The notes: a model not told the origin generated them from the letters alone. DNA of 32,354 nucleotides from Pelomyxa schiedti (GCA_020536535.1 JAHLWZ010000352.1:1-32354); one strand, 5' to 3'. Counted from the first letter of the stretch, positions 6,927-32,354 are shown. Program-made: numbers and translations.

Positions 6927-9649
6927 TTAAGACGATGCACCACCAAGCAGGCCGCTTGCAGTGTTGAACAAGTTGATGGGTGAGTTGCCGTCGGTGATCA
7001 TGACGCTCTTGAGGCCAAGGCCGGCCAGAAGCTTGGTCTGCATCTCGGGGCCGGCCTGTGCAATGGCCTTGATGGTATCAGGTCCAATGCTGGCGACAAT
7101 GTCGCGGAACTTCTTGGCCTCAATTTGTGATAGTTCTCGGGCCTTGCTGATTTCGAGCTCGTTGAGGGCCTTCTGGTAGAAGACTTCCTGCTCTTGCTTG
7201 GCGGCGAGGTTCTCCATTTCGGCCTCGGCCTGATTGTTATGTTAGAATCACCGGTTTGCGGTGGAAGAAAGAAGGGAAATGTACCTTGATCTTGTTGGCC
7301 TCAGCCTTGAGTTCGGCTTGCCTGACTGATGCCTCTCCCTCAATTTGGGCAGCCTCTGCCTTAGCTCGGGCCTCTGCAGTTGCCTGACCAGTGGACTCGA
7401 CTGCAGCGCTTCCGGCTTGCAATTGGAGCAAGTTCTTGCGGGCCTTCTCAGCCTCGGCCTCATCATTGATCTTCTGCCTCTCAAGGCGGCCCTTAGCCTC
7501 TTGTTCCAAGCGCTCAGCCTCGTGGCGGGCAGTTGCCTCCTGGGACTTGGTTGTGATCTCAATGGCGAGCTGGACTGACTTCTGGAGTGAGTCTCGTGTT
7601 CTCTGGTCAACTGGCTCGACGCTCTGAATATCTACGTTGGTGATGGCGAGTTTGTTTGCCTTGAAGACGAAAGCGGTCTTGTCACTGCCTCCGAAGACGC
7701 TGTCGCGGATGATCTTGGCACTGTTGCGGTGGAAGTGGTCGAATGAAACGCTGGCAACTGCACCACGGACTCGGGCAGCAATAGCCTTGCAAGAGTCACC
7801 AACAAAGTCTGGGACTTGGAAGATGTTTGCAGAGTCAGCATCCTCCTTGCGGACATCGAATTGCCAGTTGTAGCTCAGCTTGAGGGACAAGCGGGCGTGG
7901 TCACCAGTCTCTACAATGACAATATCTGTCATGAAGTCGGGACCCAAGAGCATGGCAAGGGACTTGATGACGTGTGGGCGCTTGGGCTTATCACCAGAGA
8001 GGGAAAGGACGGTGAAGTGCTCATCGGGTCCGAGAATGACCAATTCTGGTCCAAAAACGACCCTGCTCCTCTTCTCCTTATAGTCATACACTTGCACAGC
8101 TGAGTTGTGGGGTGCGCGGTAGGTGACAACGCGAGTCTTGTCGCGGGGTGTCGAGTCAACTACGCTTCCGTCAGCAATGCGTACATCCTTCTTGAGAAGT
8201 TCCTCAACAATTGGTGGGAGCTCCTTGGCCCATGGCTCCTCATTTGGCTTGAGCATGTAGGAGGTGCCAATGTGAGCGCGGACTTTACCGGTCTTAATGT
8301 CCCTGACGTAGATACCCTCGTTCTCATCAAGAGGAATAGCGCGGCGCTTCTCAACAACTTCAACCTGGACTGGTGGGATGAAGTCGGTTGGTCCGTGAAC
8401 CATCCAGCGGTCTCCAGGAGCGTGAACCTCCTTGCCCTCGGTGAACTCCTCCTTGGCTCGGAGAAGAAGGGCCTCATCGGCAGCAAGAACGTAGACGTTC
8501 TGGACTCCACTCTCGAGTCTCTCCCCTGGCTTGAGGAAGAAGAAGATCTCTCCCTTTCTGAGTTCCTTCTTGCCGAGCTGTGGGCGTCCGTGAACGTCAT
8601 GTGGGTCCATGACTGTGCAGTACTGCCTGTTGGTAAGAGTGGTGATCTTGACCTCTCCAACGACTTGCTCGTAGACATCGGGAACATAGACCTCAGTCAT
8701 GTCGCAGGTAACCAGCCATTCCTCACCAGCCTTGCGCTCGTTCTTGAAGGCATCAACGAAGGTTCGGGTGGCGCGGAGGTGAAGAGCCTTGATGGGTGTG
8801 AGGGTGAAGCCCTGGACTGTCTCGACGACTTCCTCGTCAACTCCGGGGAGGTAGGATCCAACACTTCGGACCATCCACTCCTCACCGGCGCGCTTGACAA
8901 CACCGCTGCGTGCGGTGGTCTCCTTGCGGGCACGGAGCTTGAGACCCTGATTTGGCTTGATAACAACGGCGCGAACAATCTCAACTACTTGAACCTCAAC
9001 CCTAAAGAACAAAGGATTAGAATTGCCGGAAATTTGATGTCGTAGACAAATAGCGGGAAGTTACCTTGGGTAGTAGGTGCCTGGGCCCTCAAAGAGCCAC
9101 TCATCACCAGCGCGGTGGCGCTCAACTGTCTGTTCCTTGGGTACCTCAAAATCGCGGGTGGCGCGGAGGCGGAGAGCAGCATTGGGAGCAACAACCTGAA
9201 GGGGTGACACCTTGCCGAAGAGCTTCTCACCAGGGTAGAGTGGGAATGGGTCCTGCTCGAATCGGATTTCCTCATCACCGTGGCGGAGCTTGACACTGCC
9301 GTGATTATCAAGGAGGGGAATTTGGCGCTCGTCTCTCTCAACGGGGTTGCTGATGATGCAGTAGTGTCGAGGGGGGACCATGATCATGGGCTCGGGTCCG
9401 GCAACAAGCTTCTCATGGTCCTGGCGTGTGAAGGTCTGTGGACCAATCTCTGTTCGGGTGACGTTCTTGTTGTTATCAAGAATGTGGATGTAGTGGTATC
9501 TGGTAAAGAAGGGTATGGTCGGTAAACGACGAATATTAAGTTTATCTTGTTTGTAAATAAAACGGTTGTTTTGTGTTGCGCGGTGAAGTAAAAAAAAAAA
9601 AAGACGGTAACACATACGGCTTGATTCGAATGACTGGTTCAGAAGACAT
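6927..9649 (-). CDS. MVP: Major vault protein, 4 exons
   Basis: Minus-strand translation matches MVP end to end. N-terminus [11 protein letters not shown]|YHYIHILD (human [20 protein letters not shown]). Vault repeats [40 protein letters not shown]. Shoulder and cap-helix: [109 protein letters not shown]-terminus [57 protein letters not shown]. Exons in plus coordinates, gene on minus: 9618-9649 (ATG at 9649..9647, in-frame TGA just upstream), 9065-9499, 7285-9001 (a single 1717-nt exon), 6927-7229 (TAA at 6929..6927). Introns: 9500-9617, 9002-9064, 7230-7284. Confidence 0.9.
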
Positions 9650-10834
9650 TTTTCAGTATCTGCTGATGGGGTCAGGCCGATGTAACTACAAAACAACCAA
9701 CAACAAAAAAAAATCATAAAGGCCGAAGCAAAGCGCGGGTGGGGGAACCAATAGGCGGGTGTTGGTAAAAGGCGACAAAACACGACAACAAGCGACACCG
9801 GTGAAACGTCACTGTCGCTTACCCTTTTTTGTTTGTGTTAAGTTACTCTGTTGGTTGACTTTTTCTTGTTTTTTTTTAAAAAATGTTTGGTTCGGGGCTT
9901 AAAATTTATATTTTTACTCCGCACAGCGGTTGAAAAGGAAGAAAAAAAAAGGAAAAAAAATAGAAAAAACTTTTTTGGTTTCGGAAAGGGTGTCCGTTAA
10001 TTCTGTTTCGGTATTGCCCTCTTTCGCAGTTGCTAATGCTCCTGAGACTGACAGATCCCTCCCTCCAGCCCACCCGTGTCCCTCCTTCATCCTCCCCACG
10101 CCAAGCATCATTTCCGATCTCACGTCGAACCTTAAGATCTGCAACCAATATCTTTCCGCCCACACGAAAAAAACAAAGCGAGGTGATACGCACGTATGTT
10201 TGATAATAGTGCCGAAAGTACGGATGCGGATCTCAAGAGTCGAGCTAAGAAGAGTGTTGTTTCTTCTTCTTCTTTGAGGGAGTGATTTTGGGCTGCCACG
10301 TCGGCTTGCAGTTCTAACCGCCAGTTCGATTTTTCTTTTTTTTTTTTTCCCTCTCTATGTGCAGTGTGGATATTAGGGTTCTTTTTGTTGCCTGGAGTGT
10401 GGTTCATTATGCCGTGTTACTTCCTCAAGTTCTGGAAGCGTTCATCTCGGGAAATGGAACATGTTCGTTGGTGTAAGTACCTTCACCATACCGTGACTAT
10501 TCAATACAATGATAATGCACTATACATACATTTCCTCACCATACTGCGTAAAACCCAAACAAACGGAACTGAATTGTCAATCTCTCTCTCTCACCACTTT
10601 CCTTCTCTTGCCACACACTCTCCTCTACTCCCGCTATTGTCGTGACTTTAATAGAAATAGAAATAGTTATATAGTGCGGGCAACAGAACGCCACTTACAA
10701 ACTGCAATTTATGTGTGGGCGCCTCACATATAACTAATTCTTATTTAGATAAGTAGTACCTTTTTCCTAACCCTCCACATACAACTACAGATGTCATTGC
10801 GGGGTGTATCGGTGGTGTCATATATTCCGCTCTG

Positions 10835-11060: not shown

Positions 11061-11230
11061 TTGATTTTAAATTTTCTTCGCGAAGCAACTGTAAATCAAC
11101 GGACTAATTTTGGAAAGCCTTCGAACCAAAGAAGAAAAAAAAACCAAGGGGGAAGACGCGGCAACAGCGACACCTCCCAGATCTACGACACACTTAGACT
11201 TAGTTGCATTACTGTTGTTACAATCGACCC

Positions 11231-12338
11231 ATGTCGAAGGCGACCAAAATGATGCACCTGCTTAACTGCAGGATGCGCGTAACCATAGACGACGGGCGGA
11301 TGTTGGTAGGCAAGTTCATGGCGTTTGATAAACACATGAATTTGGTGCTGGGTGATGCGGAGGAGTTCAGGCGAGTAATAGTAAGCACGGGAGCGACGGG
11401 CGGCGCGGCCGCGGCTGCCGCTGCTGCCTCGACTGCATCGAGCGGCGGCGCGACCAGCACAACGGCTACGGCATCTACTTCAGCCGCGAAAACGCCGAAA
11501 GTTAAGGAGGAAAGAGACGACAAGAGATCGCTGGGTTTGACTCTAGTGAGAGGCGAATGCGTCGTTTCCCTGTCAGTTGAGGAGAGACCACCTCCGGAGG
11601 TAGAATTATGTTTTTTCTCTCTTGTCCTCTTCTTATTTCTCACCGTTTTTTTGCCCTTTCAGGATACCAAGAAATCAGGAACACAGTTTGGTGGGCCCGG
11701 ACAAGGTGTAGGTCGTGTAGCTAGTAGAGGTATTGCTGTTCCACCACCAGGACAAGCACCAGCAGGTAAATTTTATGCATAGAATCTTTGGGGTTGTATT
11801 TATGTGGAAAAAAGGACTTTCTGGCCCAGCTCGAGGAGTAGGAGCACCATCACCTTCTTCAATGATGCCATCCATGAGTACGCACCCTTAAATCCTTTTC
11901 CGTCGTTAATGTATACACAGCACCAACACCCGCGTTCAGAGGTATGCCATTCCCACCTGGGATGCCTCCCGGAATGCCTCCAATGATGCCCCCAGGTAGT
12001 GAATTTTGTTGAAAAATTTCTCTAATATTAATCAATTAAGGCAGAGGAATGCCCCCGGGTATGCCACCAATGCCTCCCGGTATGCCACCCCCAGGAATGC
12101 TTCCACCCGGTATGATTTATGTGTTATCGAAGCTTAACACGTACTTAAACACAACTTCACTACAATAGGCTTCCGCGGATTCCCACCAGGCATGATGCCA
12201 GGGATGATGCCGCCTCCACCCCCAGGCAGAGGGATGCCCCCAGGAATGATGCCTCCGCCCGGCATGATGCCGCCAGGGATGATGCCACCTCCAGGCCCAC
12301 CCGGAATGATGCCCCCTGGCCAGCAAGGACGATCCTAA
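11231..12338 (+). CDS. SNRPB: snRNP core protein Sm B/B' (SmB/SmN family), 6 exons
   Basis: Sm fold: MSKATKMMHLLNCRMRVTIDDGRMLVGKFMAFDKHMNLVLGDAEEFRRV ... RSLGLTLVRGECVVSLSVE, close to the human SmB N-terminus. The C-terminal tail is Pro/Gly/Met-rich with PPGM(M/R) repeats, as in SmB (GMPPGMPPMMPPG, GMMPPPGMMPPGMMPPPGPPGMMPPG). ATG at 11231 (the ORF track starts at a TTG at 11204). Exons: 11231-11599, 11663-11765, 11830-11877 (alternative acceptor would make this 11815-11877), 11921-11995, 12041-12109, 12169-12338 (TAA). Introns are 40-70 nt, all GT-AG. Confidence 0.85.
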
Positions 12339-12577
12339 GCCCACCAACACACCCAACACACCACGCTGCTCCTCTATCCGCCCCCCCATCGCACGTATCT
12401 CTATGGTACATGGGCTACAACAACAACACCCTCACGCACAAGTTGACACAGGCGACATCACTCTTTGTGTGTAACTCTCTTTCACAGTCTTTTTTGGCTT
12501 CACTCCAAAATCATCGACATCTCTTTCTGATCACTTTTTCCCTGTTTTCTGTTTTTACACGAAGTCCCGACATCAAG

Positions 12578-14194
12578 ATGTTGCGACGTTTGGCCACGGT
12601 GGCGAGCAGCCTCGGCAACCGCCAGCAACAACAAAACACCACAAGCGGCAGTAGCACGCGGCCGGGCACAACGGCGCCCGTGCTGCACAGGACCACTACT
12701 ACAGCCAATACCACCACAGCAACAGCCTCAGCCTCCTCGTCCCAGTCACCAGCACTCCTCCTCCTGCCGTCCAAGCCGCTGCGGGCCGCGCCCGCGCCCG
12801 CCGCCCCCGCGGCCACCTCGGCGGCCACGCCCAAGGCCCAGCAGCAGCAGCCCTCGCCGTCGCCCTCCCCCTCGTCGCCTGCCCCGCCCACGCACTCGCA
12901 GCAGCAGCCGCCGCCCTCCCCGTCGACGTCCGCGTCCCAGGCGACGCCCCAGCAGTTGCAGGGCGGCTATTATGGGACGGGCGGCGGACCCGACCCCCCT
13001 GGAAACGAAATCACTACGAGCGCAACCGCGACCTCTGTGACGGCAGAGGCACTGGCACCCGGTAGTACCACAACAACCATTGCCAATAGTAGCGATTATG
13101 GGTGTGGTGCGCATGCTACTGCAAAAGAATCAAACTCTACTACCACATGTACTATTGCGAATGGAGGTAGTACTAGTAGCAGCAGTACTAGCAATTGTGG
13201 AACCTGTGGTAACTCTAATAATACTAACCACGGCACACCGCAAACTAACCCCCCTCCTCACTCACCTTCACCAACAATATCTTCCCCGTCGCTCACTCCC
13301 TCGCCTTCACCATCCCCTACATTTGTATATTCACCCACACTTTTATCTTCACCTGCATTACCATCTTCTGCAGCTTCGTCCCAGTGCCAATCCTCATCCA
13401 ATTTAACCACTGCTGCAAACCCCTCACGAAACGCCAGTCCTGACACTGGAAAGACACCAGGAGGGGGTGCATCTGGCAGCAGCACTATGCGGTTGGGTGC
13501 GTCAAACACCAACTTACTGAAGCCGGTACCTTCCGGCCCTGAGGAATCTACTGGCACTGCTTATGCACAAAGGGCAAGGTTGGATGCAAATGACAAAAGT
13601 GGTAGTGACGAGTGGAAAGGGCACCACAAAAGGCTGACGGCTACACGAATGCACATGAAGATGGCCGAATTCTTGTACACTGAGACGGAAATCGTCACTT
13701 GGATAGAAACTACCTTGAAAGTGAAGTTCACAGAAACGAGGTCCCTGCAAAAAATATGTGAGGGTATGTACCGTTCTTCCCTCTTTCTGTTGATCAGTGA
13801 TCATTATAGACGGCACTGTGATGTGCAAATTACTAGCCTGTCTTGCACCTGACATGAAATTGCCGCCATTTCATTTTAAACCCTCTGCCACCGCTCAAGT
13901 ATTTTTGGAGGAGTGTTGGGACTACTAAAAACTCTTTAGAAAATTGAGAACATCAATTTCTTTCTTCTGGGATGCAAGCGTTTGCATATGCCGGTTGACA
14001 ATTTTGCAGCACAAAACCTTATAGACAACAAGCATTTGGATGAAGTTATCTCGATCCTAAGCTATCTCATGTGGGTTCCTTCTTCCTTGCCAACTGCTCC
14101 AACACTTCTCAAGGAAAAGGGCTTTATCTGTACCCACCACCACTGGTCGAGCCGAGGTCACAGTCAAACTGGCAGGTACACTGAATTCACCTAG
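12578..14194 (+). CDS. Protein with a ~395-aa low-complexity N-terminus and a single IQGAP-type calponin-homology (CH) domain
   Basis: Exon 1 (12578-13763) encodes a Ser/Thr/Pro/Ala/Gln-rich region, then RLTATRMHMKMAEFLYTETEIVTWIETTL (compare IQGAP1 RLTAEEMDERRRQNVAYEYLCHLEEAKRWMEA). Exon 2 (13798-13898): IIDGTVMCKLLACLAPDMKLPPFHFKPS. Exon 3 (13940-14175 if spliced again, or to the TAG at 14192-14194): KIENINFFLLGCKRLHMPVDNFAAQNLIDNKHLDEVISILSYLMW. Introns are 34 and 41 nt. I see no RasGAP or IQ region. The 3' end is uncertain: a possible short fourth exon would end near 14250. An AATAAA lies at 14299-14304. Confidence 0.65.
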
Positions 14195-14582: not shown

Positions 14583-16933
14583 ATGAAAAAGCGAGTGAAA
14601 GACATGGTGAAAAAGACATGTGCTGACCTGCCCTTGGTACATTTCCTCCCATAAAGGTAGGTTTAGTAACTCCTCATAACCAGATTCTTGATTTAACTGC
14701 GAAGAAGGGATTTCAGGGGCCTAATCTCAAAATTCCAGCCCGTGGTCTTATCCCAAATGATGCGGTTCAATTTTATTCGTGGAATATTGTCCATATTCAC
14801 ACTGACTCTTTCATTTTTGGAACACTCTTTGTCACAAAGTACAATATAATCTTCGAACCTTATGCTTGGGTAATATTTCACACCAATTTACCGTACCCTT
14901 ACAGCTTATAAGTTACCTCAAAGTGCCAGCAACAGTGCAGCCCGTCCTGTATCCAGATCTTGTGAGTCAGGGACAAGCATGTGCTCTCGTCAAGGGTTTA
15001 GGGTTCCCCTAGCTACAATTTCCAAGATAACAGCAACAACCGGAATATCGAGACAAGTTGGGAAGTATAAAACGTCTGTCCACGAAACCTTTGAAACTTT
15101 TCTGACCCCACTACCAAAAGTTTCGAACTTGTGTGCAAAGATTTTAATGAAGTCAGATTTTCTTATCTTGTGCGAATGGGCAATCCTCTCTGCGATCCTG
15201 TCGTTCAGCTTGTAGACCGTCATAAAATTCCAGAGAATAACTTCCAATATGCCTTTTGTATTAAAGGTTTACCTGTGTCTGTCTTCCCAGTGTTTTAACC
15301 CCAAGTGCACCATTTCTCCTAGGGCCATGCGGGGAGCATGACGGTTGGAAGGTATATGATCCCCCTAACGAATTTGCCCGAATGGGAATACCATGCAAAG
15401 TACCTTCTCCTGGGTTATGTATTATCTCAAGGTGCTATAGGAATGGCGACTGTCGCAAATAAACAGTGCATACGTTGCTTCATCTTATCCTCGAACTCTA
15501 TGTGTTCCCTCTGCAATTGATGACACTCAGCTGGAAAAAGTCATGCACTTTAGGAGTAAGGGCAGAATTCCAGGTGCTTTTTATCTTTGCTCAATCGATC
15601 TAATCATGGTAGCGGTTGTTTTCAGGTTTCAACTCAATGGAACCGTAATGCTCAGATGTTCACAACCAGGTAGTACCATTCCAGAATTATTCCTCTCACC
15701 ACAGAAAAAGCTGTTGGAATGCTGGGTAAGCGCTGTGAAGAAGATGAATTGCTTTTTGCTACATTAGCCAACCCATTGTGCTCCCCTGCGCCAACTCACC
15801 GAGGTACATCTGGACAACTAAAATGAAGTCCTTGACTGAGATGTAGTTCTCATATTTGACGCCCGGCCAAAGATCAATGCACTCGCAAATAAGTTAAAGG
15901 GTATGGGCTATGAGACATACTCAAACTGCAAAATGTCTTTCCTGGGCATTGAAAATATTCATGCTATCAGAGAGAGTTTTAAGAAACTCAGGTTTGCATT
16001 ACCCCAACATTTCTTTTTGTGGTCTTAAGGATCAGCTAGAGCTGTAGTTAACCTTGAACCATATGCACAGTCAAGTGATAAGTTTGAAGCATCAAAATGG
16101 CCAGGTTTGTCCCCCTTTTTCCGCACCTATCTTATTGTGCAATAACAGCACATATTGTAACAATCCTGAGGGGCAGTTATATTATCTCGGCGTTTATGCA
16201 AAAAGGGGAACAGATTGTTGTACACTGCAGTGATGGCTGGGATCGTACAAGTTCCGCTCCATACTCTTACATTCCAACATTGACCTTTCTTTTACCATTC
16301 TCATTCAACAGGCCAATTAACTGCGTTATCCCAAATGATCCTTGATCCCTACTACAGAACCCTTGTTGGATTTGAGGTGTTAATAGAAAAAGAGTGGCTA
16401 AGTTTCGGGTATCTCGGCAATTCAAAAAACCCTTGTTTGTGCTAATCAGAGACAATTTTAGGCATAAATTTTCTACCCGCGTTGGCCACGCCACGGCCGA
16501 TCATAAAGACCAAGAAAGGCACGTATTTACCTACACCATAAATCACCCCAATAACACACAAACAAGATCACCGATATTCCTCCAGTTCCTAGACTGCGTT
16601 TACCAAATATGGTTCCAGTACAAATCCGCTTTCGAATTCACAGATAGGCTTCTTGAAACAATAGCAGAACACCACATAAGCTGCTGTTTTGGTACGTTCC
16701 TATTCAATTCCGAACAAGAGCGGATGCACCGACAACTCCCCGCCAAGACAGTTTCACTCTGGTCCCACATCAACTTCCACAGCACACACTTTACCAACAC
16801 CACATTTGCTCCCACAGCAGGACCCCTCATTGACAGCCCCACATGTGGTAAATTGGGAGGTAACCTCACCCCTCTGGACGTTAGACTGTGGCCTTATTAC
16901 TATGTATGGAGGAACTACCACTATTGCACGTGA
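14583..16933 (+). CDS. Myotubularin-family phosphoinositide 3-phosphatase (GRAM/PH plus active CX5R phosphatase domain), about 13 exons
   Basis: GRAM domain: [37 protein letters not shown] (compare MTMR2 [39 protein letters not shown]), [30 protein letters not shown]. Linker: [70 protein letters not shown]. Phosphatase domain: [43 protein letters not shown], the catalytic loop [14 protein letters not shown] with Cys and Arg of CX5R intact, [90 protein letters not shown] at 14583 (in-frame TAG upstream), TGA at 16931-16933. Exons: 14583-14636, 14684-14869, 14967-15064 (an alternative acceptor gives 14913-15064), 15121-15266, 15323-15399, 15441-15573, 15613-15725, 15768-15777 (tentative 10-nt microexon), 15841-15991, 16040-16104, 16149-16250, 16312-16408, 16450-16933. 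The minus-strand ORFs 14347-14652, 14693-14881 and 14990-15247 are antisense artefacts. Confidence 0.8.
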
Positions 16934-24300: not shown

Positions 24301-25950
24301 TTGTTGAGCAATGAGTTTCCAGGTTTGAAGTAGCACTGAAAACCTCTGTAATGGCAAGTTCATTGGCGGAACTGCTATAGGGCTTTGGAGTCGCAGTATG
24401 GAGCAGGTTGACACAAGTATTTTGTAACCAAGAAACTAGATGAGGAATGGGAAAGCCCAAGAGGCACTGGGAATTTTTTTTGCAGAGTCTCGTTATTTCT
24501 TGGTTGAGATCATTCAAAGATGTTTCTGAAAGAATCTCAGTGCTGTTATGGTTTGGAGATTAATATAGAGTGTACCTGTTAAATCTTCAACTGGAATATC
24601 AAACAAATTGCGTAGTTGGAGTAAGTCATCGGGTACCTCTTCATATTGAGTCCGTTAGTAAAGTTGGCTTGTTTTGGTGAGAGATTGATTACCTGAAGAG
24701 TGTGTCCTGCGGGCAAACACTTTGGGGCCTTCCCTGGTTTGTTGCGATGGCACAGTACATTGAACCTGTTGCTCACTGGCAGTAACGTTTGAAAGGGTTC
24801 GTCGTGTGTCTGTGGGAGAATTTTGTTCCAGTATACAATTTTCTTGTTGGCTCTCTGTGTTGTCTGTAGGTGATTCTTGAAAAAGTTGACTGGACTTCCT
24901 AGGGGTAAGGGGGTGGCCCTGCTTGGTTTTTGAATGTGACAGGCGTGGGGATGCAATGGAAGAAATCTTGCGAGTAATTCGTGGGGAGACCAACAAAACC
25001 TCCCTCTTTTCCACAGAGTTGTGATTGTTGCTGTTATTATCTGTTGCATATTCTCTGCTAGCACAGTTTTGGTGAGCAGTGTTTTGTTCATAATGCAGTG
25101 GGATGGCATCATCAAAGCTGAGACGCGTTGGCGACAGCAGGGGAGGAGCAGGAGAAGTCACCAGTGCTGTCATCCTCCCCGTCCGCGGTGACTTCGGAGG
25201 CGGTGTGGAGAATGAGCGCGATAAAGACGGCCGCCGAGCGGGTGACTGTGCAGGATTGTCTGTTGCACCAAATGCACTGGCGCGGCGGTCACCACAAGAA
25301 CAAGAGCTCCGCGGAGAATCACATCCCACGCACCTCGCAGCAGCAACAATCCCCGACACCGGCCGCATCCTCAACACAGAGTGTGGCAAACTAGCACATC
25401 CCAGCCCCTCATCAACTCCGCCAATCCCAACGCCAATCTCAACGCCACTCGCAAATCTCACACTCCTGGGGCCACCACCACCACCACGCCTGTGGCTCAG
25501 AGGCGGCGAAGGCGGCGGCGAGACGGCCGCCGCATCCCCGCAAGGGAAGCCGTCGCCGCCATCGCCTGGAGACAGCAGCGGCGCCAGCGGCGAGCACGGC
25601 GGCACCGAAGGGAGCACGCACGGGGGCGGCGGCGGGGCCAGCGACGTGGTGCTGTGCCGCCGCGTCAGGGGCGCCCCGGGCGTGCGCGAAAGCGACCGCG
25701 GGTGCGGCGCGATCCCGGGGGTCGTGGTGGTTGTGCTGGCCGCCGCGCGGCGCGACGAGTGCGGCGGCGGCGTCGCGGGCGCGGGAGCAGGAGACGAGGG
25801 ATGATGCGGAGGAGGAGGAGGAGCAGCGGAGATCTGGTGAGGTACAGTGACAGGCGGCCGCGAGTTTGGGTGTTGCGGTGACGACACGGAAGAAGAAGAG
25901 GAGGAGGAGTGCAGGGGGCGGACTTGGTTGTCAAGATCTGGCGTCCTCAT
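18385..25950 (-). CDS. Large multi-exon gene: ~420-aa disordered Ser/Pro-rich N-terminus, PHD-type zinc fingers and long helical (HEAT/ARM-like) repeat region; possibly a Scc2/Nipped-B-like cohesin loader (tentative)
   Basis: Exon 1 is plus 24693-25950. ATG at 25950..25948 gives MRTPDLDNQVRPLHSSSSSSSVSSPQHPNSRPP..., a proline- and serine-rich region, ending at a GTAATC donor (phase 1). Further minus-strand coding blocks: 23574-23855; 22971-23213 (VVDMLVNDLLCTLNSPEWPASELMLQVFTHLAINSL); 22699-22974 (LCPHCSASFDSLMIQCDECCRYQKE) and 22548-22757 (FHGTCSGINVNEAPAEWICGDCEF), both PHD-like Cys4-His-Cys3 patterns; 20769-21170 and 20369-20728 (SLYILGTLCKYFNFNERGILQTIK; helical repeats); 20101-20502; 19159-19425. 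The last exon, about 18385-18972, encodes a basic/acidic tail (RRRTSPAVRKPRVTKPRATTTTRRVPAKRARKPITDDDEDEEYQPDNDEDD) with a stop at 18385. Internal exon boundaries were not resolved. The family assignment is a guess from architecture (disordered N-terminus, then PHD, then HEAT) and a remembered LGxLCR.F(D/N)F-like motif. Confidence 0.55.
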
Positions 25951-26675
25951 CTTGTGTGTGCACGACGAGCAACAAAACGAAATAAAATAAAATGTTGTGT
26001 GGCTTGACACGCCGCTTTCTGTGTGTGCCTTTTCACAGGATAATTTCTGATCTCCAGGATCTCCATTGGGGCCTCAGAGGGCTCAGGCCACACTTAGGAG
26101 TTCTCACTGCCGTTCAGATCTTGCAAGAAGAGGGAAGCCCAACACATTTTGTTGAGGTGGGACGGTTTTGATCAACCCGGCGATTTCGCCAAATTTTCCG
26201 GTGCGCACTGTCATTAGAAGAAGGTCGGGTGCATAAAGACATGAACGAAGGAACGTTTTTTCTTTCTCACAGGTTGAATGTCTTTCCTTGTGGTGGGTTA
26301 ATAGAAAACCCAAAAAAACTCTCAGCAGACTAACCAAACATAATAAAAAAAAGTTGTAGTGAAGGTACAGGGTTGTGGTGAAGAATGAAGACCTTGGTTC
26401 CTGGCGTGAATAGCAACAGGGTGTCAGACGCATCAACATCTGATGATGGTGGAGGCGATTTGGAGGATGGTTCTGCTGCTGTGGAAATGTGCAAGTTCAC
26501 TGGAAGCACTGCCAGTATTCATTTGAACGGAATTGGACGCCCAATTGAATCCAGTCAGATAATTAAAAGGAGAGGGTAGGATTTTACCTTTTTTTTCTTT
26601 TATTTACAGTATTGTTGTTAACTCTTTTTTTTTTTTGTTGTTGTTTGCAGTAAGCTTGCAGGAGCGTTCTCGCTT

Positions 26676-29598
26676 ATGGCCGTTGTTCCTCTCGTTGCTG
26701 CTCTAGTAGTTGTTATAATTATCGCTGTCAGTTTGGCACCTACTACTGCTCTGTGGGTGGCCTCCCTGCGTTCTCTGAGTGGGACCTGTTCTTCCAGCAT
26801 TTCAAAGGTTATCACCGCAACACTATTTATTTAGTTTGGATTAACTTTCATGTAGGAGATGGATGTTTACCGAAACCTTCTGGTTGAAAAGAGCGTCTCC
26901 AATATCTCTTCGCATATGAGCATCCCTCCCACAGTAGCCTACGTTGTACAAATTTCCCTTCCTGAGGCAGCATACACGTCGCCGGTCCCTTTACACACAG
27001 ACCATAGTGTGTTCCAGTCTGTGTTCCGGGGTCTGGCCAAGCACTTCTCAGCAATCAATAACATGGTATTCATTTCTATCGACCAATCACAGATTCTAAC
27101 CCCCAAAAAGTTCGTCGGATGGGTAAATGACCAAGGAGAACACTTTTACATTGACAGGCAACAAACATGGGGAATGTATGACAGTTGCGTCGATTCCAAC
27201 ATATCACTCTTTTACATTCGCAACGGGGAAGCCACAAATGAAAAGGCAGCACCTGTCACAAACTACAACCTCACAGTAAGAGCTTGGTGGTATGGATATG
27301 GTTCCATTGTATATATGGGCCTAACGGAAAAAAACAAGGACAACGGGGCTTTCGGCATGGACTGGGTCCTGGACATCTGTATATATGTCGGTCAATCCGG
27401 ACGATGGAAGACTCATAGGATATACCCTGAGGCCTCCTTTTGATGTGCCTGTTGTCATACAAGTGACTTACAGCACTGCATTCCTCCAAGAATTCTTCAA
27501 GAACTTCAACCTCACAAAGCACGGCCTTGCCTTCTTGCTGGAGAATGGATCTCTGAAAATTGTAGCAGGGACAACAGGCATTCCCATTCTTACTGATACC
27601 GGGGGAGATACTTTCGCCCTTACCTCCACTGATGACACTGTCAGGGATGCAGCAGCAAAGGTGATCCCTCTAATCCTTCATTCTCCAATTGTGACTTCCG
27701 CAGTGGTTGAACATGACTGGCCCCACTCCAGTTGAAAGTCATTTCACTATGATGATGGTGGAGGAAGGAATATCCTTTGTAGATGTAGTTCCAATTACTG
27801 CAAGTGGCGGGCTGGTACTGTGGCTATTCCTGGTCACGCCAGAGAAGGTTTCCTAATTCAATTCCTATTTATGGTCTGACTGGTCCATAGGATTTCATGC
27901 AAGAAATTCAAGAGGAGCAAACTACCGCTGTGGACGACGCATACTTCTCCCTGTGGGTAGTACTGGGCGTAGAAGTAGTCATTGCCATCCTAGCTGTTGT
28001 GATTAGTATTACTTTAGCACTTGTTCTTGCTCGAGCCCTCTCGGCAGTTATAAGCAAACTCAAAAAAGTTTCAAGTGGACAGTTGACAAAGTAAGCTACA
28101 ATTTATTCTCTCTTTTCTTTCTTACATAAAATAGGAGGCAGAGTAGCAACGACCTCAAGACTAGCATGTTGCGAGAAATTGACTCGGTACATTGCTCTTT
28201 AGGCCTCCCTTTTTCTCTTATTCCCTCTCAGCTGAACTCTGAAGTTACAAGCATGCAATCGGCGTTGGAGTCTTTCAGCCAGTAAGTCTCCTTATCCCGT
28301 TTTTCCCACCCTAATAGTGCCCACAGATATGTTCCAACTCAAGTCGTTCGGTAACAGAATTTCCGCAAGATCACCCAGAGTCTAACCCTTGCTTCAGATA
28401 CCTGTGCAAGAATCACATGAAACCAATTGTTGGGGTAACCAAAATGCACTGCACTGTGATGTTTCTGGACATTGTTGATTTCGTAGGTATTTCTTTATGG
28501 TTTTTAACACTGACTGGTCTCTAGACACATACTATGGAACAATATGGTGCTCAAACTGTGCTGGACATCCTTTCCACAATGTTTGAATCATTTTCTACAA
28601 TTATTTCTAAGAACGACGGGTGCATTGATAAGGTAGCCACTTCACAAGACATTTCTCCCTTCTAATTCTTCTCTCACACCAGTATATCGGTGATGCCATC
28701 ATGGTGAGTATTGAAACACTTTTCTTTTCATTCTGAAAGCACAATGTAGGCATTATGGGGATGTCCTGTGGTTGATCCCAACTCCGAATTGAAAGCTTGT
28801 CACGCCATCGCTGAGATTTTAGCCGATTTAGATAGAATAAATGTCATTTTCAAAACGAAGTCTTACCCGACAATGCGCATTCGTATTGGGGTAAGTTATA
28901 CCATACCCCTTAGGATAACGTATTTACGTTTTCTTGCAGCTTCACTCTGGAGAAGTGAACGCCGGAAATGTTGGGTATCAAAAAACAATTCAAGCTTCCC
29001 AACCAACTGACTAACATTTCACCAGATCAAGTCAAAGACTCAACTTCACGGTCCTAGGTTATTGTCTCTTGTTGTGCATGCATTACCTTACATTTACTAG
29101 GAAGCACTGTCAATTTGGCCAGCAGATTAGAACCTCTAAATAAAGAACTGCACACCTCAGTTCTTGTAACTGATTCTATCAGAGATGCTGTCTGGGCCGC
29201 TACCAATAGTGAGATATTTACATGGCGGGCCATTGGTCACATTCAGGTACCACTTCATTCTCCTGCTGATAGCATCGCTCACTTCATACAAGGTACGCGG
29301 AATCAAAGTACCTGTCCTCGTCCATGAATTCTTGGGCTTCACAGCAAAGTATGCTTCATTTCGATTTCCAACAGTACTTACAATATTTTAAATCGGCAGT
29401 TTAAGTGAGCAGACCGCCAGAATGGTGAAGAACTATTCCGGAATTGACCGCATGCTCTACCACGGCAAGAAAGGCGCTGCTCCAGCGGACATTACAACAG
29501 CCATTGATGAATATCTTGAAGATAACCCTGATGACTTCGCTGCTACGCAGGCCAGAAAGATGCTCGCAAATATTCGTGCCTCTTTTCACGCCCATTGA
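26676..29598 (+). CDS. Receptor-type class III adenylyl/guanylyl cyclase: signal peptide, extracellular domain, one TM helix, catalytic domain; multi-exon
   Basis: Exon 1, 26676-26807: MAVVPLVAALVVVIIIAVSLAPTTALWVASL..., a signal peptide. Exon 2 from 26856, and exon 3 to 27660 (the 2/3 junction near 27390/27419 would be a 28-nt intron, uncertain): an extracellular domain of about 270 aa. TM exon about 27885-28088: DDAYFSLWVVLGVEVVIAILAVVISITLALVLARALSAVISKLKK. Linker exons: EIDS|LNSEVTSMQSALESFSQ. Catalytic domain: YLCKNHMKPIVGVTKMHCTVMFLDIVDF|THTMEQYGAQTVLDILSTMFESFSTIISKNDGCIDK|YIGDAIM|...TMRIRIG|LHSGEVNAGNVG...STVNLASRLEPLNKELHTSVLVTDSIRDAVWAATNSEIFTWRAIGHIQ. The class III hallmarks FxDIVxFT, IGDxxM, GxHxGxVxxGxVG and TVNxASRxE are present, and both metal-binding Asp are present. 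The last exon ends ...DNPDDFAATQARKMLANIRASFHAH with TGA at 29596-29598. Most internal exon boundaries are approximate. Confidence 0.8.
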
Positions 29599-31025: not shown

Positions 31026-32354
31026 GTGATGATGACATCGACGGAACCACCCCACCTACTCACAGCCACAATTGATGCGACTGCCGATGATGGTTGTGCC
31101 AGTTGGTACGGTACAGCAGTAACTATCGTGGATCTGCCGGACAGCGTCATCGTCGCCATCGCTGCCTACGTGGCCGCCGATGCAACCCCAATCACCGCAA
31201 CAACAAGCAAAAACATTGTCGCCCCAGGAGCTCCTGATGATGGAACCACCACCAACACAGAAACGGCAACGGCTTCTACCGAGGAAACAACAACAACAAC
31301 AACCCCAACCCCACCCGCCGTCCCGTCGGGAATCACTCTGTCGATGGTGGCCAGAATGCCAGCCGAAACGGCGGCGAGACCAACCTCAATGTTTCATGGA
31401 TACGATGAGTTGCTGAAGGTCAGGAAGGCCATGGAGGGGGACGCGCCGCCACAGTTCGTGTCTCGTCGGAACACGAGGGGCGCAGCGGACCTGATGGCGA
31501 TGAGGAGGGCGTGCAGGAGGATCCACGACCTCATGGGCACCGTGCCGTTCTGGGTCGAGATGTGCAGGCACAGGTACGGCCACTTCGCCGTGCCTGACGA
31601 GATGACGCCGGAGCAGATGGCAGCGTTGGAGGCCGAGAAGGCCGCCGCGAGGGAGAAGGCTGCTGCCGAGGCCAAGGCAATCGAGGACGAGAAGGAAAGG
31701 CAGAGGGTCGCGATTGAGAGGGAGCAGCTGATGGCAAAGAGGAGAGCAGAGAGGATGGAGAAGCAAGTCGCTGCGGAGGCTGAAAGGCAGAGACTCGCTG
31801 AAGAAGCCGCTGCCGCCGCCGCCGCCGCAGCAGCAGCAACAACAACAACAGAAGAAGCTCCAACAGGAACAAAAACAACAACGACAATCAAGGATGATGA
31901 TGGGACTTCATCCACCGGTGGAGACAAACAAACACCTGCACCTTCACCTTCCGCAAATAGCGCGGTTGGTGCAACAGCAGAACCCGCAACAACCGATCCC
32001 TCCACGTCAGTCACTGCTCCCACCGCTCCTGCTGTCACAGTTGCTGTTCAGCCAGCAGAAACACAACCGGATCCTGAAGAAGAAGAACCGGCCGCACCTC
32101 CATCCAAAATTGCAGAAGTTGTGGTTGCATATTCACACAGCAGAATTGTTCTTCCGACAGGTCGCAACGATGCTTCTTGGTGGGAGAAAATATTTTTCGA
32201 TGTTTCTCACATGTAAGTGGCCTTTCCGTTTTTATGCAATCTCATTCCGTTCTGCCCTCAAAATATTTCAGAGGTTGTGACCATTGCAATGCATTTCCAA
32301 TGGAAGTTTTCTTCAAGTGCCTTCATTGCAATGATGTTTATTTGTGTGAAAACT
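31026..32354 (+). CDS. ZZ-type zinc-finger protein with Ala/Thr-rich low-complexity and coiled-coil regions; 5' part only (continues beyond the window end)
   Basis: Exon 1, 31026-32212 (ATG at 31026; AT|gtaagt donor, phase 2): MMMTSTEPPHLLTATIDATADDGCASWYGTAVTIVDLPDSVIVAIAAYVAADA... (an LPD..I..I..Y stretch with weak F-box-like character), a coiled coil EQMAALEAEKAAAREKAAAEAKAIEDEKERQRVAIEREQLMAKRRAERMEKQVAAEAERQRLAEE, then ...RNDASWWEKIFFDVSH. Intron 32213-32271. Exon 2 from 32272: (I)GCDHCNAFPMEVFFKCLHCNDVYLCEN..., the C-x2-C...C-x2-C-x-D-x-x-LC pattern of a ZZ zinc finger, running off the window end. Confidence 0.6.

Follow-up and report, generated by a model that had tools for sequence, protein, structure and literature searches.

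A stretch of Pelomyxa schiedti DNA (assembly GCA_020536535.1, JAHLWZ010000352.1:1-32354; this whole 32,354-nt stretch, from whose first letter all coordinates are counted, is the window) carries on its plus strand a gene that very probably encodes a plasma-membrane receptor adenylyl cyclase of bacterial design. In order, the predicted protein consists of an N-terminal segment, a first transmembrane helix (TM1), a double-Cache (dCache) sensor, a second transmembrane helix (TM2), a HAMP domain, a transducer element, a class IIIb cyclase domain and a helical tail. Junction-by-junction mapping revealed that 19 exons at 26385-29598 reproduce exactly a deposited P. schiedti protein, P0001 ("adenylate cyclase", 783 residues). 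An earlier note on this DNA had proposed a multi-exon gene for a membrane-bound, receptor-type class III cyclase at this locus, and Pfam bore this out with a match to PF00211 (E=3e-23). The features of the gene and its predicted product are as follows, with the evidence for each.

26385-29598 (+): coding sequence, 783 residues plus stop; the exon translation equals P0001 exactly, and an in-frame TGA lies 6 nt 5' of the ATG
26385-26575, 26651-26807, 26856-27065, 27111-27289, 27339-27660, 27704-27847, 27891-28090 (+): exons 1-7, from the P0001 mapping
28135-28186, 28232-28281, 28327-28350, 28398-28482, 28525-28632, 28683-28703 (+): exons 8-13, from the same mapping
28750-28890, 28940-28974, 29026-29057, 29101-29246, 29293-29348, 29400-29598 (+): exons 14-19, from the same mapping
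26385-26672 (+): predicted N-terminal cytoplasmic region, residues 1-71, including intron 1; paralogue alignment and a net charge of +4 before TM1
26673-26747 (+): TM1, residues 72-96; hydropathy, an internal signal-anchor preceded by 71 conserved residues
26748-27947 (+): predicted extracellular dCache_1-like sensor with two PDC modules, residues 97-420; AlphaFold2 (AF2), Foldseek and HMMER
27948-28031 (+): TM2, residues 421-448; hydropathy, with an outside flank of -5 and an inside flank of +4
28023-28270 (+): predicted divergent HAMP, residues ~446-498, with an AS1 helix, a connector ~5 residues longer than usual and an AS2 helix; hhalign, and helix-loop-helix in AF2
28271-28428 (+): cyclase-transducer-like element, residues 499-520, beginning SFSQYVPTQVVRYLCKN and lying partly in a 24-nt micro-exon; alignment with bacterial proteins and a short AF2 helix
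28429-29331 (+): class III (subclass IIIb) catalytic domain, residues 521-712; Pfam, PDB matches, Foldseek and the residue set DKDRTNR
28468-28470, 28630-28632, 28692-28694, 28882-28884 (+): catalytic residues D534, K574, D578 (in a 21-nt micro-exon) and R626, respectively; alignment
29048-29050, 29112-29114, 29124-29126 (+): catalytic residues T648, N655 and R659, respectively; alignment
29332-29595 (+): C-terminal tail, residues 713-783, with three helices and a YLxxNPxD motif; alignment A4 and AF2 at a predicted local distance difference test (pLDDT) score of ~90

The catalytic domain carries the assignment of the enzyme. PF00211 (Guanylate_cyc) was the sole domain above threshold in P0001, scoring 82.7 bits against a cut-off of 21.9 (E=3.3e-23, residues 527-704). 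Alignment to CyaC and CyaB assigned metal binding to D534 and D578, phosphate binding to R626 and transition-state roles to N655 and R659, and the seven-residue set DKDRTNR is identical in 27 archamoebal family members. Lys and Thr had been read in the earlier note at the two positions that determine substrate specificity, and both readings held when P0001 was aligned to CyaC and CyaB. Specifically, K574 (CIDKYIGDAIM) occupies the first position, with IDKYIGDAIM of P0001 aligned to VDKFVGDAIM of CyaC and IDKFVGDCVM of CyaB, and T648 (NFTVLGSTVN) occupies the second, where it falls on the Thr of CyaC (FTAIGPSVN) and CyaB (YTIIGREVN); over this region NFTVLGSTVNLASRLE of P0001 aligns to DFTAIGPSVNIAARLQ of CyaC and DYTIIGREVNLASRLE of CyaB. 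The true exon junctions do not restore a canonical Asp or Cys at the second position, as T648 stands in the exact P0001 model.

The same note had concluded from these residues that the purine pocket is unusual or degenerate, which does not follow. Class IIIb cyclases are reportedly defined, by Linder and Schultz in 2003, by Lys with Thr (or Ser) instead of Lys with Asp. The predicted active site is that of a standard class IIIb adenylyl cyclase, neither unusual nor degenerate, because the Lys/Thr pair is the class IIIb norm and the catalytic set is complete. A pseudo-enzyme was rejected, since all catalytic residues are present in P0001. When the cytoplasmic half was compared with PDB sequences, the best matches were the Cya2-derived 6FHT and 2W01, Spirulina CyaC (1WC0/1WC1, 2.5e-20), Pseudomonas aeruginosa CyaB (3R5G, 8e-19), OaPAC and bPAC; mammalian transmembrane adenylyl cyclases, guanylyl cyclases and Rv1264 scored below CyaC, CyaB, Cya2 and bPAC/OaPAC. 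In an AF2 model of residues 418-783 the cyclase core reached a pLDDT of ~90, and Foldseek superimposed it on CyaB, CyaC and Cya2 with TM-scores of 0.82-0.89 and root mean square deviations of 2.1-2.9 Å. By these top sequence and fold matches, the closest relatives of the predicted enzyme are class IIIb cyclases rather than those of classes IIIa, IIIc or IIId. Thr at the second position has been described as a marker of soluble adenylyl cyclase (sAC)-like, bicarbonate-responsive cyclases (PMC3383692); by analogy, from subclass membership only, the predicted enzyme may, speculatively, respond to bicarbonate or CO2.

Two P. schiedti paralogues encoded on a 49-kb contig, P0010 and P0012, read IDKYIGGTIM at the corresponding place, so that the second metal-binding Asp is replaced by Gly while the other catalytic residues are kept. 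From their sequences these are probably catalytically dead copies, and they could serve as regulatory partners in heterodimers.

The second main component is the ectodomain. For modelling, fold comparison and profile searches we used an ectodomain alignment (A2) cut from 12 well-modelled paralogues. The resulting AF2 model (mean pLDDT 80.8, predicted template modelling score 0.78) starts with a long N-terminal stalk helix, continues with two alpha/beta modules and ends in a C-terminal helix; in P0001 a transmembrane helix lies on either side of this region. Searched against the PDB with Foldseek, the model gave 96 matches at E<=1e-3, and all 50 that were listed are dCache-type sensor or chemoreceptor domains, each with a probability of 1.00; they include PctD (7PRQ, 4e-9), PctA (5T7M, target TM-score 0.70), TlpA, Tlp3, Mlp24 and TlpQ, as well as mmHK1S-Z3 and the sensor-kinase domains 3LIB, 3LI9 and 3LIC. 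When 1.84 billion representatives were searched exhaustively by HMMER with the ectodomain profile, 1209 proteins passed E<=1e-3. Among the best 40 of these matches outside the query set, Pfam recognized dCache_1 in 20 (best 3.7e-20), PDC_1 in 17, HAMP in 16 and a cyclase in 18. A word-indexed search with the same profile recovered two Pelomyxa fragments only. By fold comparison and profile homology, the ectodomain is thus predicted to be a double-Cache (dCache_1-like) sensor.

The earlier note had seen no recognizable motif in this region and had looked to a Pfam search to classify it. Pfam gave hints only, in the form of sub-threshold PDC_1 and dCache_1 matches, and it was fold comparison together with the exhaustive profile search that led to the double-Cache assignment. 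Weak PDC_1 matches appeared in 13 of 16 paralogues (best E 0.0019) and weak dCache_1 matches in two of the 16, and some Mastigamoeba relatives reached 16-22 bits on dCache_1, for which the cut-off is 45. The ectodomain profile searched against PDB sequences gave a marginal match to 3LIC only (E 0.26), over a WW..G...W motif.

The AA_motif of amino-acid-sensing dCache_1 domains, as set out by Gumerov et al. (2022), consists, in PctA numbering, of Y121, R126 and W128, which contact the carboxylate, and Y144 and D173, which contact the amino group; PctA D173A and D173N each abolish binding (PMC8915833). For the pocket columns, ectodomains from Archamoebae (38) and from bacteria (106) were aligned to the A2 profile by hidden Markov model (HMM). 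In this alignment P0001 keeps Y238 (27264-27266), R243 (27279-27281), W245 (27285-27287) and Y261 (27382-27384), and in the D173 column it has T289 (27466-27468). That column holds Thr, Ala or Ser in all 38 archamoebal members and Asp in 61 of the 106 bacterial relatives. With the Asp of the AA_motif replaced by Thr, the ectodomain falls outside the amino-acid-sensing subfamily, dCache_1AA, and a role as an amino-acid sensor was rejected on this ground. The archamoebal family appears, from these alignments, to derive from the amino-acid-sensor lineage and to have lost the residue that holds the amino group. Because that Asp is replaced by Thr, the putative ligand is probably not an alpha-amino acid bound in the canonical mode; another carboxylate-bearing metabolite is a plausible, if speculative, candidate. 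The Tyr/Arg/Trp/Tyr of the distal pocket is conserved over three archamoebal genera, and the pocket residues are almost invariant among 12 paralogues, which fits either a shared ligand or a role other than ligand binding (for example, osmotic), as in yeast Sln1.

The topology rests on two strong hydrophobic segments in P0001, residues 72-96 (hydropathy peak 3.25) and 421-448 (peak 3.15). By the positive-inside rule, the protein is predicted to be a two-pass receptor with both termini in the cytoplasm and residues 97-420 outside, a span that contains six N-glycosylation sequons. A cleaved signal peptide and a single transmembrane helix had been proposed before. The first hydrophobic segment is instead an internal transmembrane helix, because the true ATG is at 26385 and the 71 residues upstream of the segment are conserved. 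The absence of a kinase-homology domain, which had also been claimed, was confirmed, the Pfam scan giving no Pkinase match. Residues 1-71 gave no Pfam match; the paralogues and Mastigella share two motifs in this region, NKVxD near the start and LxGIGxPI ~20 residues before TM1.

The ~75 residues that link TM2 to the cyclase domain are a predicted divergent HAMP directly after the last transmembrane helix, an assignment made by profile-profile homology. At the equivalent place, a canonical HAMP is present in nearly all of the bacterial ectodomain relatives, and 106 of these HAMPs were extracted. When 28 archamoebal linkers were compared with them by hhalign, the match had a probability of 94.9 % (E 4.8e-8) and covered 57 of 61 template columns, spanning AS1, the Gly-x-hydrophobic connector and AS2, with a 5-residue insertion in the archamoebal connector. 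The native score of 37.7 compares with 16.4 (7.9 %) for the reversed query and 13.7 (2.7 %) for the best of 30 column shuffles. More distant members of the family retain R-P-L at the start of AS1. Residues 499-520 follow, an element that we take to be what the literature calls a cyclase transducer. This post-HAMP segment, SFSQYVPTQVVRYL, corresponds in the alignment to the F[SG]xYVxP found ahead of the catalytic domain in the bacterial class IIIb cyclases P0021-P0023; relative to the HAMP-cyclase P0023, the spacing from HAMP to transducer is reduced by about one heptad. At the other end of the catalytic domain, the ~70-residue tail is common to bacterial CHASE2- and HAMP-class IIIb cyclases, and its Pro is invariant in Pelomyxa and P0021-P0023; Pfam gave no match to the tail.

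All of these assignments depend on a gene model that differs from the one drawn before. The gene is split to an unusual degree, with 18 introns of 42-75 nt, all GT-AG, and exons as small as 21, 24, 32 and 35 nt; every exon is kept in an alignment of 16 paralogues. The deposited P. schiedti models were built with Augustus, PASA and EVM and single-cell RNA-seq, and the genome mean is 7.4 introns per gene (PMC8887013). A hand-spliced model over the coordinates of the earlier note (26676-29598; 17 exons, 733 residues, 15 introns of 42-51 nt and the note's one of 28 nt) had P0001 as its best homology match, with 94 % identity over 100 % of the model, followed by about 20 full-length or partial P. 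schiedti paralogues. It was rejected on comparison with P0001 and the paralogues, having read through a real intron. The note's start at 26676 is the internal Met73; the coding sequence begins at 26385 and so gains 72 residues, conserved in the paralogues, that are encoded by exon 1 (26385-26575) and the 5' portion of exon 2. The note's 27390/27419 junction, equivalent to a 28-nt intron at 27391-27418, is wrong, the true introns being 27066-27110 and 27290-27338, and as a consequence about 50 ectodomain residues were misread. We accepted the upstream exon and the two intron corrections because the resulting peptide is conserved in the paralogues. The junctions around 28990-29100, about which there had been doubt, were correct: GNVGSSQRLN[YF]TVLG[NS]TVNLA is continuous in 27 family members, including transcript-derived Mastigella sequences.

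Two micro-exons encode important motifs, that at 28327-28350 (24 nt) specifying YVPTQVVR of the transducer element and that at 28683-28703 (21 nt) specifying YIGDAIM, whose Asp is the metal-binding Asp578. In paralogues P0006 and P0012 the peptide of the 24-nt exon is absent from the deposited models, which is probably a prediction error rather than biology. The Pelomyxa genome paper makes no mention of cyclases (PMC8887013), and a literature search found no paper that names P. schiedti together with adenylate cyclase.

The gene belongs to a large family. P. schiedti has at least 24 distinct members, of which four share one 49-kb contig, three a 17.7-kb contig and two a 25-kb contig, and this clustering suggests tandem duplication. 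Down to E ~1e-13, all named relatives of the ectodomain are from Archamoebae, namely Mastigella eilhardi transcripts, Mastigamoeba balamuthi models (in most cases named "hypothetical protein") and Pelomyxa paralogues. The next tier consists of bacterial or metagenomic dCache_1-HAMP-(PAS)-output proteins, among them P0082, a dCache_1-HAMP-PAS-cyclase with Lys/Thr. For the cytoplasmic half, the best matches outside the Archamoebae are class IIIb cyclases of bacteria that carry CHASE2 or HAMP, with identities of 29-36 %. Eukaryotic Cache domains have been ascribed to horizontal transfer (PMC4822843), and from the pattern of matches the most likely history is that the archamoebal stem long ago acquired the gene from bacteria, with introns gained and copies duplicated afterwards.

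The M. balamuthi relatives P0038, P0044, P0045, P0047, P0051, P0053 and P0061 all have the Lys/Thr pair. [quoted passage not shown] If the Mastigamoeba orthogroup is this Lys/Thr family (the identity of the proteins being assumed), the residues make cAMP the more likely product. Three longer models stand apart in the family: P0034 (Pelomyxa, 1215 residues), in which the peptide RLNEYFMTTYKLTLEIRIG is duplicated and a long unrelated C-terminal extension follows; P0039 (Mastigamoeba, 1812 residues), fused to an HSF DNA-binding domain; and P0072 (Mastigamoeba, 1206 residues), fused to a ThrE exporter domain. They are probably gene-model fusions or assembly artefacts, and they could be real architectures. 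A bacterial NCBI protein of 645 residues, P0025, combines dCache_1, HAMP and a cyclase with Glu/Gly, as in the guanylyl cyclase Cya2, and is, from these residues, likely a Cache-regulated bacterial guanylyl cyclase.

Taken together, these features suggest how the receptor would operate. It would function as a homodimer, the form in which all single-domain class III cyclases work. A small extracellular ligand would bind the membrane-distal Cache module, and the signal there would displace TM2. The HAMP four-helix bundle and the transducer helices would convert this displacement into altered packing of the two catalytic domains, so that cAMP synthesis would be raised or lowered at two symmetric active sites across the dimer, each formed by Asp/Asp/Arg626 from one chain and Lys/Thr/Asn/Arg from the other.

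Several points weigh against a ligand-gated receptor adenylyl cyclase of bacterial origin. The receptor cyclase is known here from its gene and predicted protein alone. The Pfam thresholds of dCache_1 (PF02743) and MCP-like_PDC_1 (PF22673) were missed, P0001 scoring 14.4 bits on PF22673 against a cut-off of 27, and the dCache assignment comes from fold and transitive profile homology, not from Pfam. PF00672 (HAMP) likewise stayed below threshold (13.0 bits, cut-off 25, E 0.13), yet the match covered profile positions 3-52 of 53; the AF2 monomer gave a helix-loop-helix for this region with a pLDDT of 39-55, which is low confidence. What is said of the ligand derives from one motif placed by HMM alignment, not from a ligand-bound structure, and there are dCache receptors, yeast Sln1 among them, that respond to osmotic or mechanical cues and not to ligands. 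A bicarbonate response is not reliably implied by Thr alone. Finally, the bacterial origin was deduced from best matches rather than from phylogeny.

Among the rival explanations, the one with most in its favor, although we consider it improbable, is that the ectodomain is an osmotic, mechanical or protein-contact sensor, or is only structural, with control of the enzyme coming mostly from within the cell, by bicarbonate/CO2 or pH for instance, as for other class IIIb enzymes. The yeast Sln1 dCache is an osmosensor (PMC4822843, PMC6944256), the amino-acid motif of the Pelomyxa ectodomain is incomplete, a pocket that is near-invariant in 12 paralogues is unusual for a family diversifying its ligands, and Thr648 marks sAC-like enzymes. 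However, the carboxylate-binding Tyr/Arg/Trp/Tyr is kept in three archamoebal genera, which suggests a maintained site, and coupling through HAMP is typical of ligand-driven transmembrane signalling. It is much less probable that the enzyme is a guanylyl cyclase. The source names of P0004, P0009 and P0011 and a statement in PMC8136499 speak for it, and Thr is possible at the second position of guanylyl cyclases provided that Glu stands at the first (PMC4215837). Every family member has Lys as the first determinant, whereas guanylyl cyclases have Glu there (Cya2 and P0025, both Glu/Gly), the closest solved Lys/Thr enzymes are all adenylyl cyclases, and the database names are automatic. The claim of the earlier note that this is a receptor-type class III cyclase making cAMP rather than cGMP is therefore upheld, as a prediction, by Lys574 and by these closest structures.

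That note had also likened the protein to the single-pass receptor cyclases, that is, the trypanosomatid adenylyl cyclases, ACG and the animal receptor guanylyl cyclases, and had given it a cleaved signal peptide and an unusual or degenerate Lys/Thr pocket. A hydrophobic stretch does follow Met73, where a hand-spliced reading frame can begin, and Thr does stand in place of the textbook Asp or Cys. The architecture refutes this reading, to which we give hardly any weight: the true ATG and the conserved 71-residue extension turn the first segment into an internal transmembrane helix, a HAMP follows TM2, and the Lys/Thr pair is the class IIIb norm with all catalytic residues present. We know of no HAMP at the position after the transmembrane helix in any of those three families. 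The protein is instead a two-pass dCache-HAMP-cyclase of bacterial type, as predicted from its sequence. Its architecture and best non-archamoebal matches are bacterial, and Pelomyxa harbors bacterial and archaeal endosymbionts (PMC10579272), so that bacterial contamination or mis-assembled endosymbiont DNA had to be weighed. The gene has 18 short GT-AG introns of genome-typical size (PMC8887013) and micro-exons, it is flanked by eukaryotic genes for major vault protein (MVP), an LSM protein and a myotubularin, and homologues occur in transcriptomes and genomes of two further archamoebal genera. Contamination is excluded by the introns and the eukaryotic neighbors, and its probability is next to nil.

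The receptor adenylyl cyclase predicted here has known counterparts in bacteria. HAMP-bearing class IIIb cyclases form an established bacterial cluster, and chimeras in which Tsr or Tar is joined to HAMP-Rv3645 are ligand-regulated and have the same two-transmembrane receptor-HAMP-cyclase layout as the Pelomyxa protein (PMC4821796). Rv3645 and Rv1319c of Mycobacterium tuberculosis likewise have a HAMP between the last transmembrane helix and a homodimeric Lys/Thr class IIIb domain. The natural Rv3645-type enzymes have a six-helix membrane anchor and no large outside domain, whereas the Pelomyxa protein has two transmembrane helices and a dCache; its HAMP has diverged, having a longer connector and a spacing to the transducer that is shorter by about one heptad, and its host is eukaryotic. 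The same module order (dCache, transmembrane helix, HAMP, class III cyclase) is found in Rv2435c, in a Legionella pneumophila dCache_1AA cyclase and in the metagenomic P0082 and P0049 (PMC4822843, PMC8915833). P0082 and P0049 contain extra PAS domains, and P0082 has Lys/Thr like the Pelomyxa protein whereas P0049 is of class IIIa (Lys/Asp). The Legionella cyclase has the full amino-acid motif, unlike the Pelomyxa protein, which lacks the Asp; the Pelomyxa ectodomain has low identity to the bacterial dCache cyclases and is not recognized by Pfam. Among eukaryotes, a 'bacterial-type' Cache adenylate cyclase of Naegleria also joins Cache to a class III cyclase and has been ascribed to horizontal transfer (PMC4822843); a single protein is reported there, compared with dozens in Archamoebae, the two being set side by side by description only.

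With sAC/ADCY10, CyaC, CyaB and bPAC/OaPAC, which include its best sequence and fold matches, the Pelomyxa protein has the Lys/Thr pair and the whole catalytic set in common. They all lack a dCache-transmembrane-HAMP input, and sAC is a soluble pseudo-heterodimer; bicarbonate regulation has been shown for sAC and CyaC. The chemoreceptors PctA/B/C, PctD, Tlp3, TlpA and Mlp24/37 share the ectodomain fold and the Y..R.W...Y part of the pocket. Their output is methyl-accepting chemotaxis protein signalling, in contrast to the Pelomyxa cyclase, and D173 of PctA contrasts with the Pelomyxa Thr. ACG, the trypanosomatid adenylyl cyclases and the animal receptor guanylyl cyclases resemble the Pelomyxa protein in joining an extracellular sensor to an intracellular class III cyclase. 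Their sensors are CHASE, periplasmic-binding-protein-like and ANF receptor domains, respectively, with one transmembrane helix and no known HAMP, and the animal enzymes have a kinase-homology domain. The Pelomyxa protein has two transmembrane helices, a dCache and a HAMP instead and, with its 71-residue cytoplasmic N-terminus and no Pkinase match, it does not belong to the single-pass eukaryotic receptor cyclases.

The window as a whole is eukaryotic nuclear DNA with very short introns, and tblastn found a single cyclase gene and no second copy in it. Neighboring genes were deduced from the open reading frames of the window. An MVP gene lies at 7240-9798 (-), its two large exons having Pfam matches to Vault repeats and to MVP_shoulder (best E 3e-46), and its coding sequence accounts for the GC-rich (55 %) stretch at 7-9 kb. 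An LSM/Sm-domain protein with an Ala/Ser/Thr-rich tail is encoded at 11204-11779 (+) (PF01423, 4e-14), and a myotubularin-like phosphatase is represented by its C-terminal part at 16394-16930 (+) (PF06602, 1e-25). Further GC-rich islands at ~530-1640, 12410-13850, 24655-26010 (-) and 31026-32216, with 55-63 % GC against a background of ~43 %, coincide with long Ser/Thr/Pro/Ala/Gln-rich low-complexity reading frames that are open in several frames and strands. These islands look like low-complexity coding exons of neighboring genes, and one of them is situated, on the opposite strand, immediately upstream of the cyclase gene.

The gene leaves the understanding of cyclase mechanism unchanged, and its Thr at the second specificity position is a textbook class IIIb mark that should not be treated as the sign of an unusual active site. 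The dCache-HAMP-cyclase architecture is already known in bacteria and one Naegleria case has been noted; what makes the finding modestly interesting is how large the archamoebal expansion is and that the pocket is derived. With its structure fully resolved, the gene is a clean instance of a dCache-HAMP-cyclase of bacterial type existing as an intron-rich family of eukaryotic genes, one whose sensor and HAMP are missed by standard domain libraries. The ectodomain, of ~320 residues and confidently modelled, is a tractable target for ligand screening. A broader scenario, which we offer as a long shot, is that the anaerobic free-living amoebae Pelomyxa, Mastigella and Mastigamoeba adopted a bacterial dCache-HAMP-class IIIb receptor and expanded it to dozens of copies as a main chemosensory system, which would directly convert extracellular carboxylate-type metabolites of prey or of syntrophic or methanogenic partners, possibly together with CO2/bicarbonate, into cAMP; the Tyr-Arg-Trp-Tyr/Thr pocket would then define a new ligand class derived from the universal amino-acid sensor, and the Mastigamoeba 'guanylate cyclase expansion' would be this adenylyl cyclase family. 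The archamoebal family extends the short list of eukaryotic Cache receptors, and its specificity residues suggest that cAMP, not cGMP, is the product of the archamoebal cyclase expansion.

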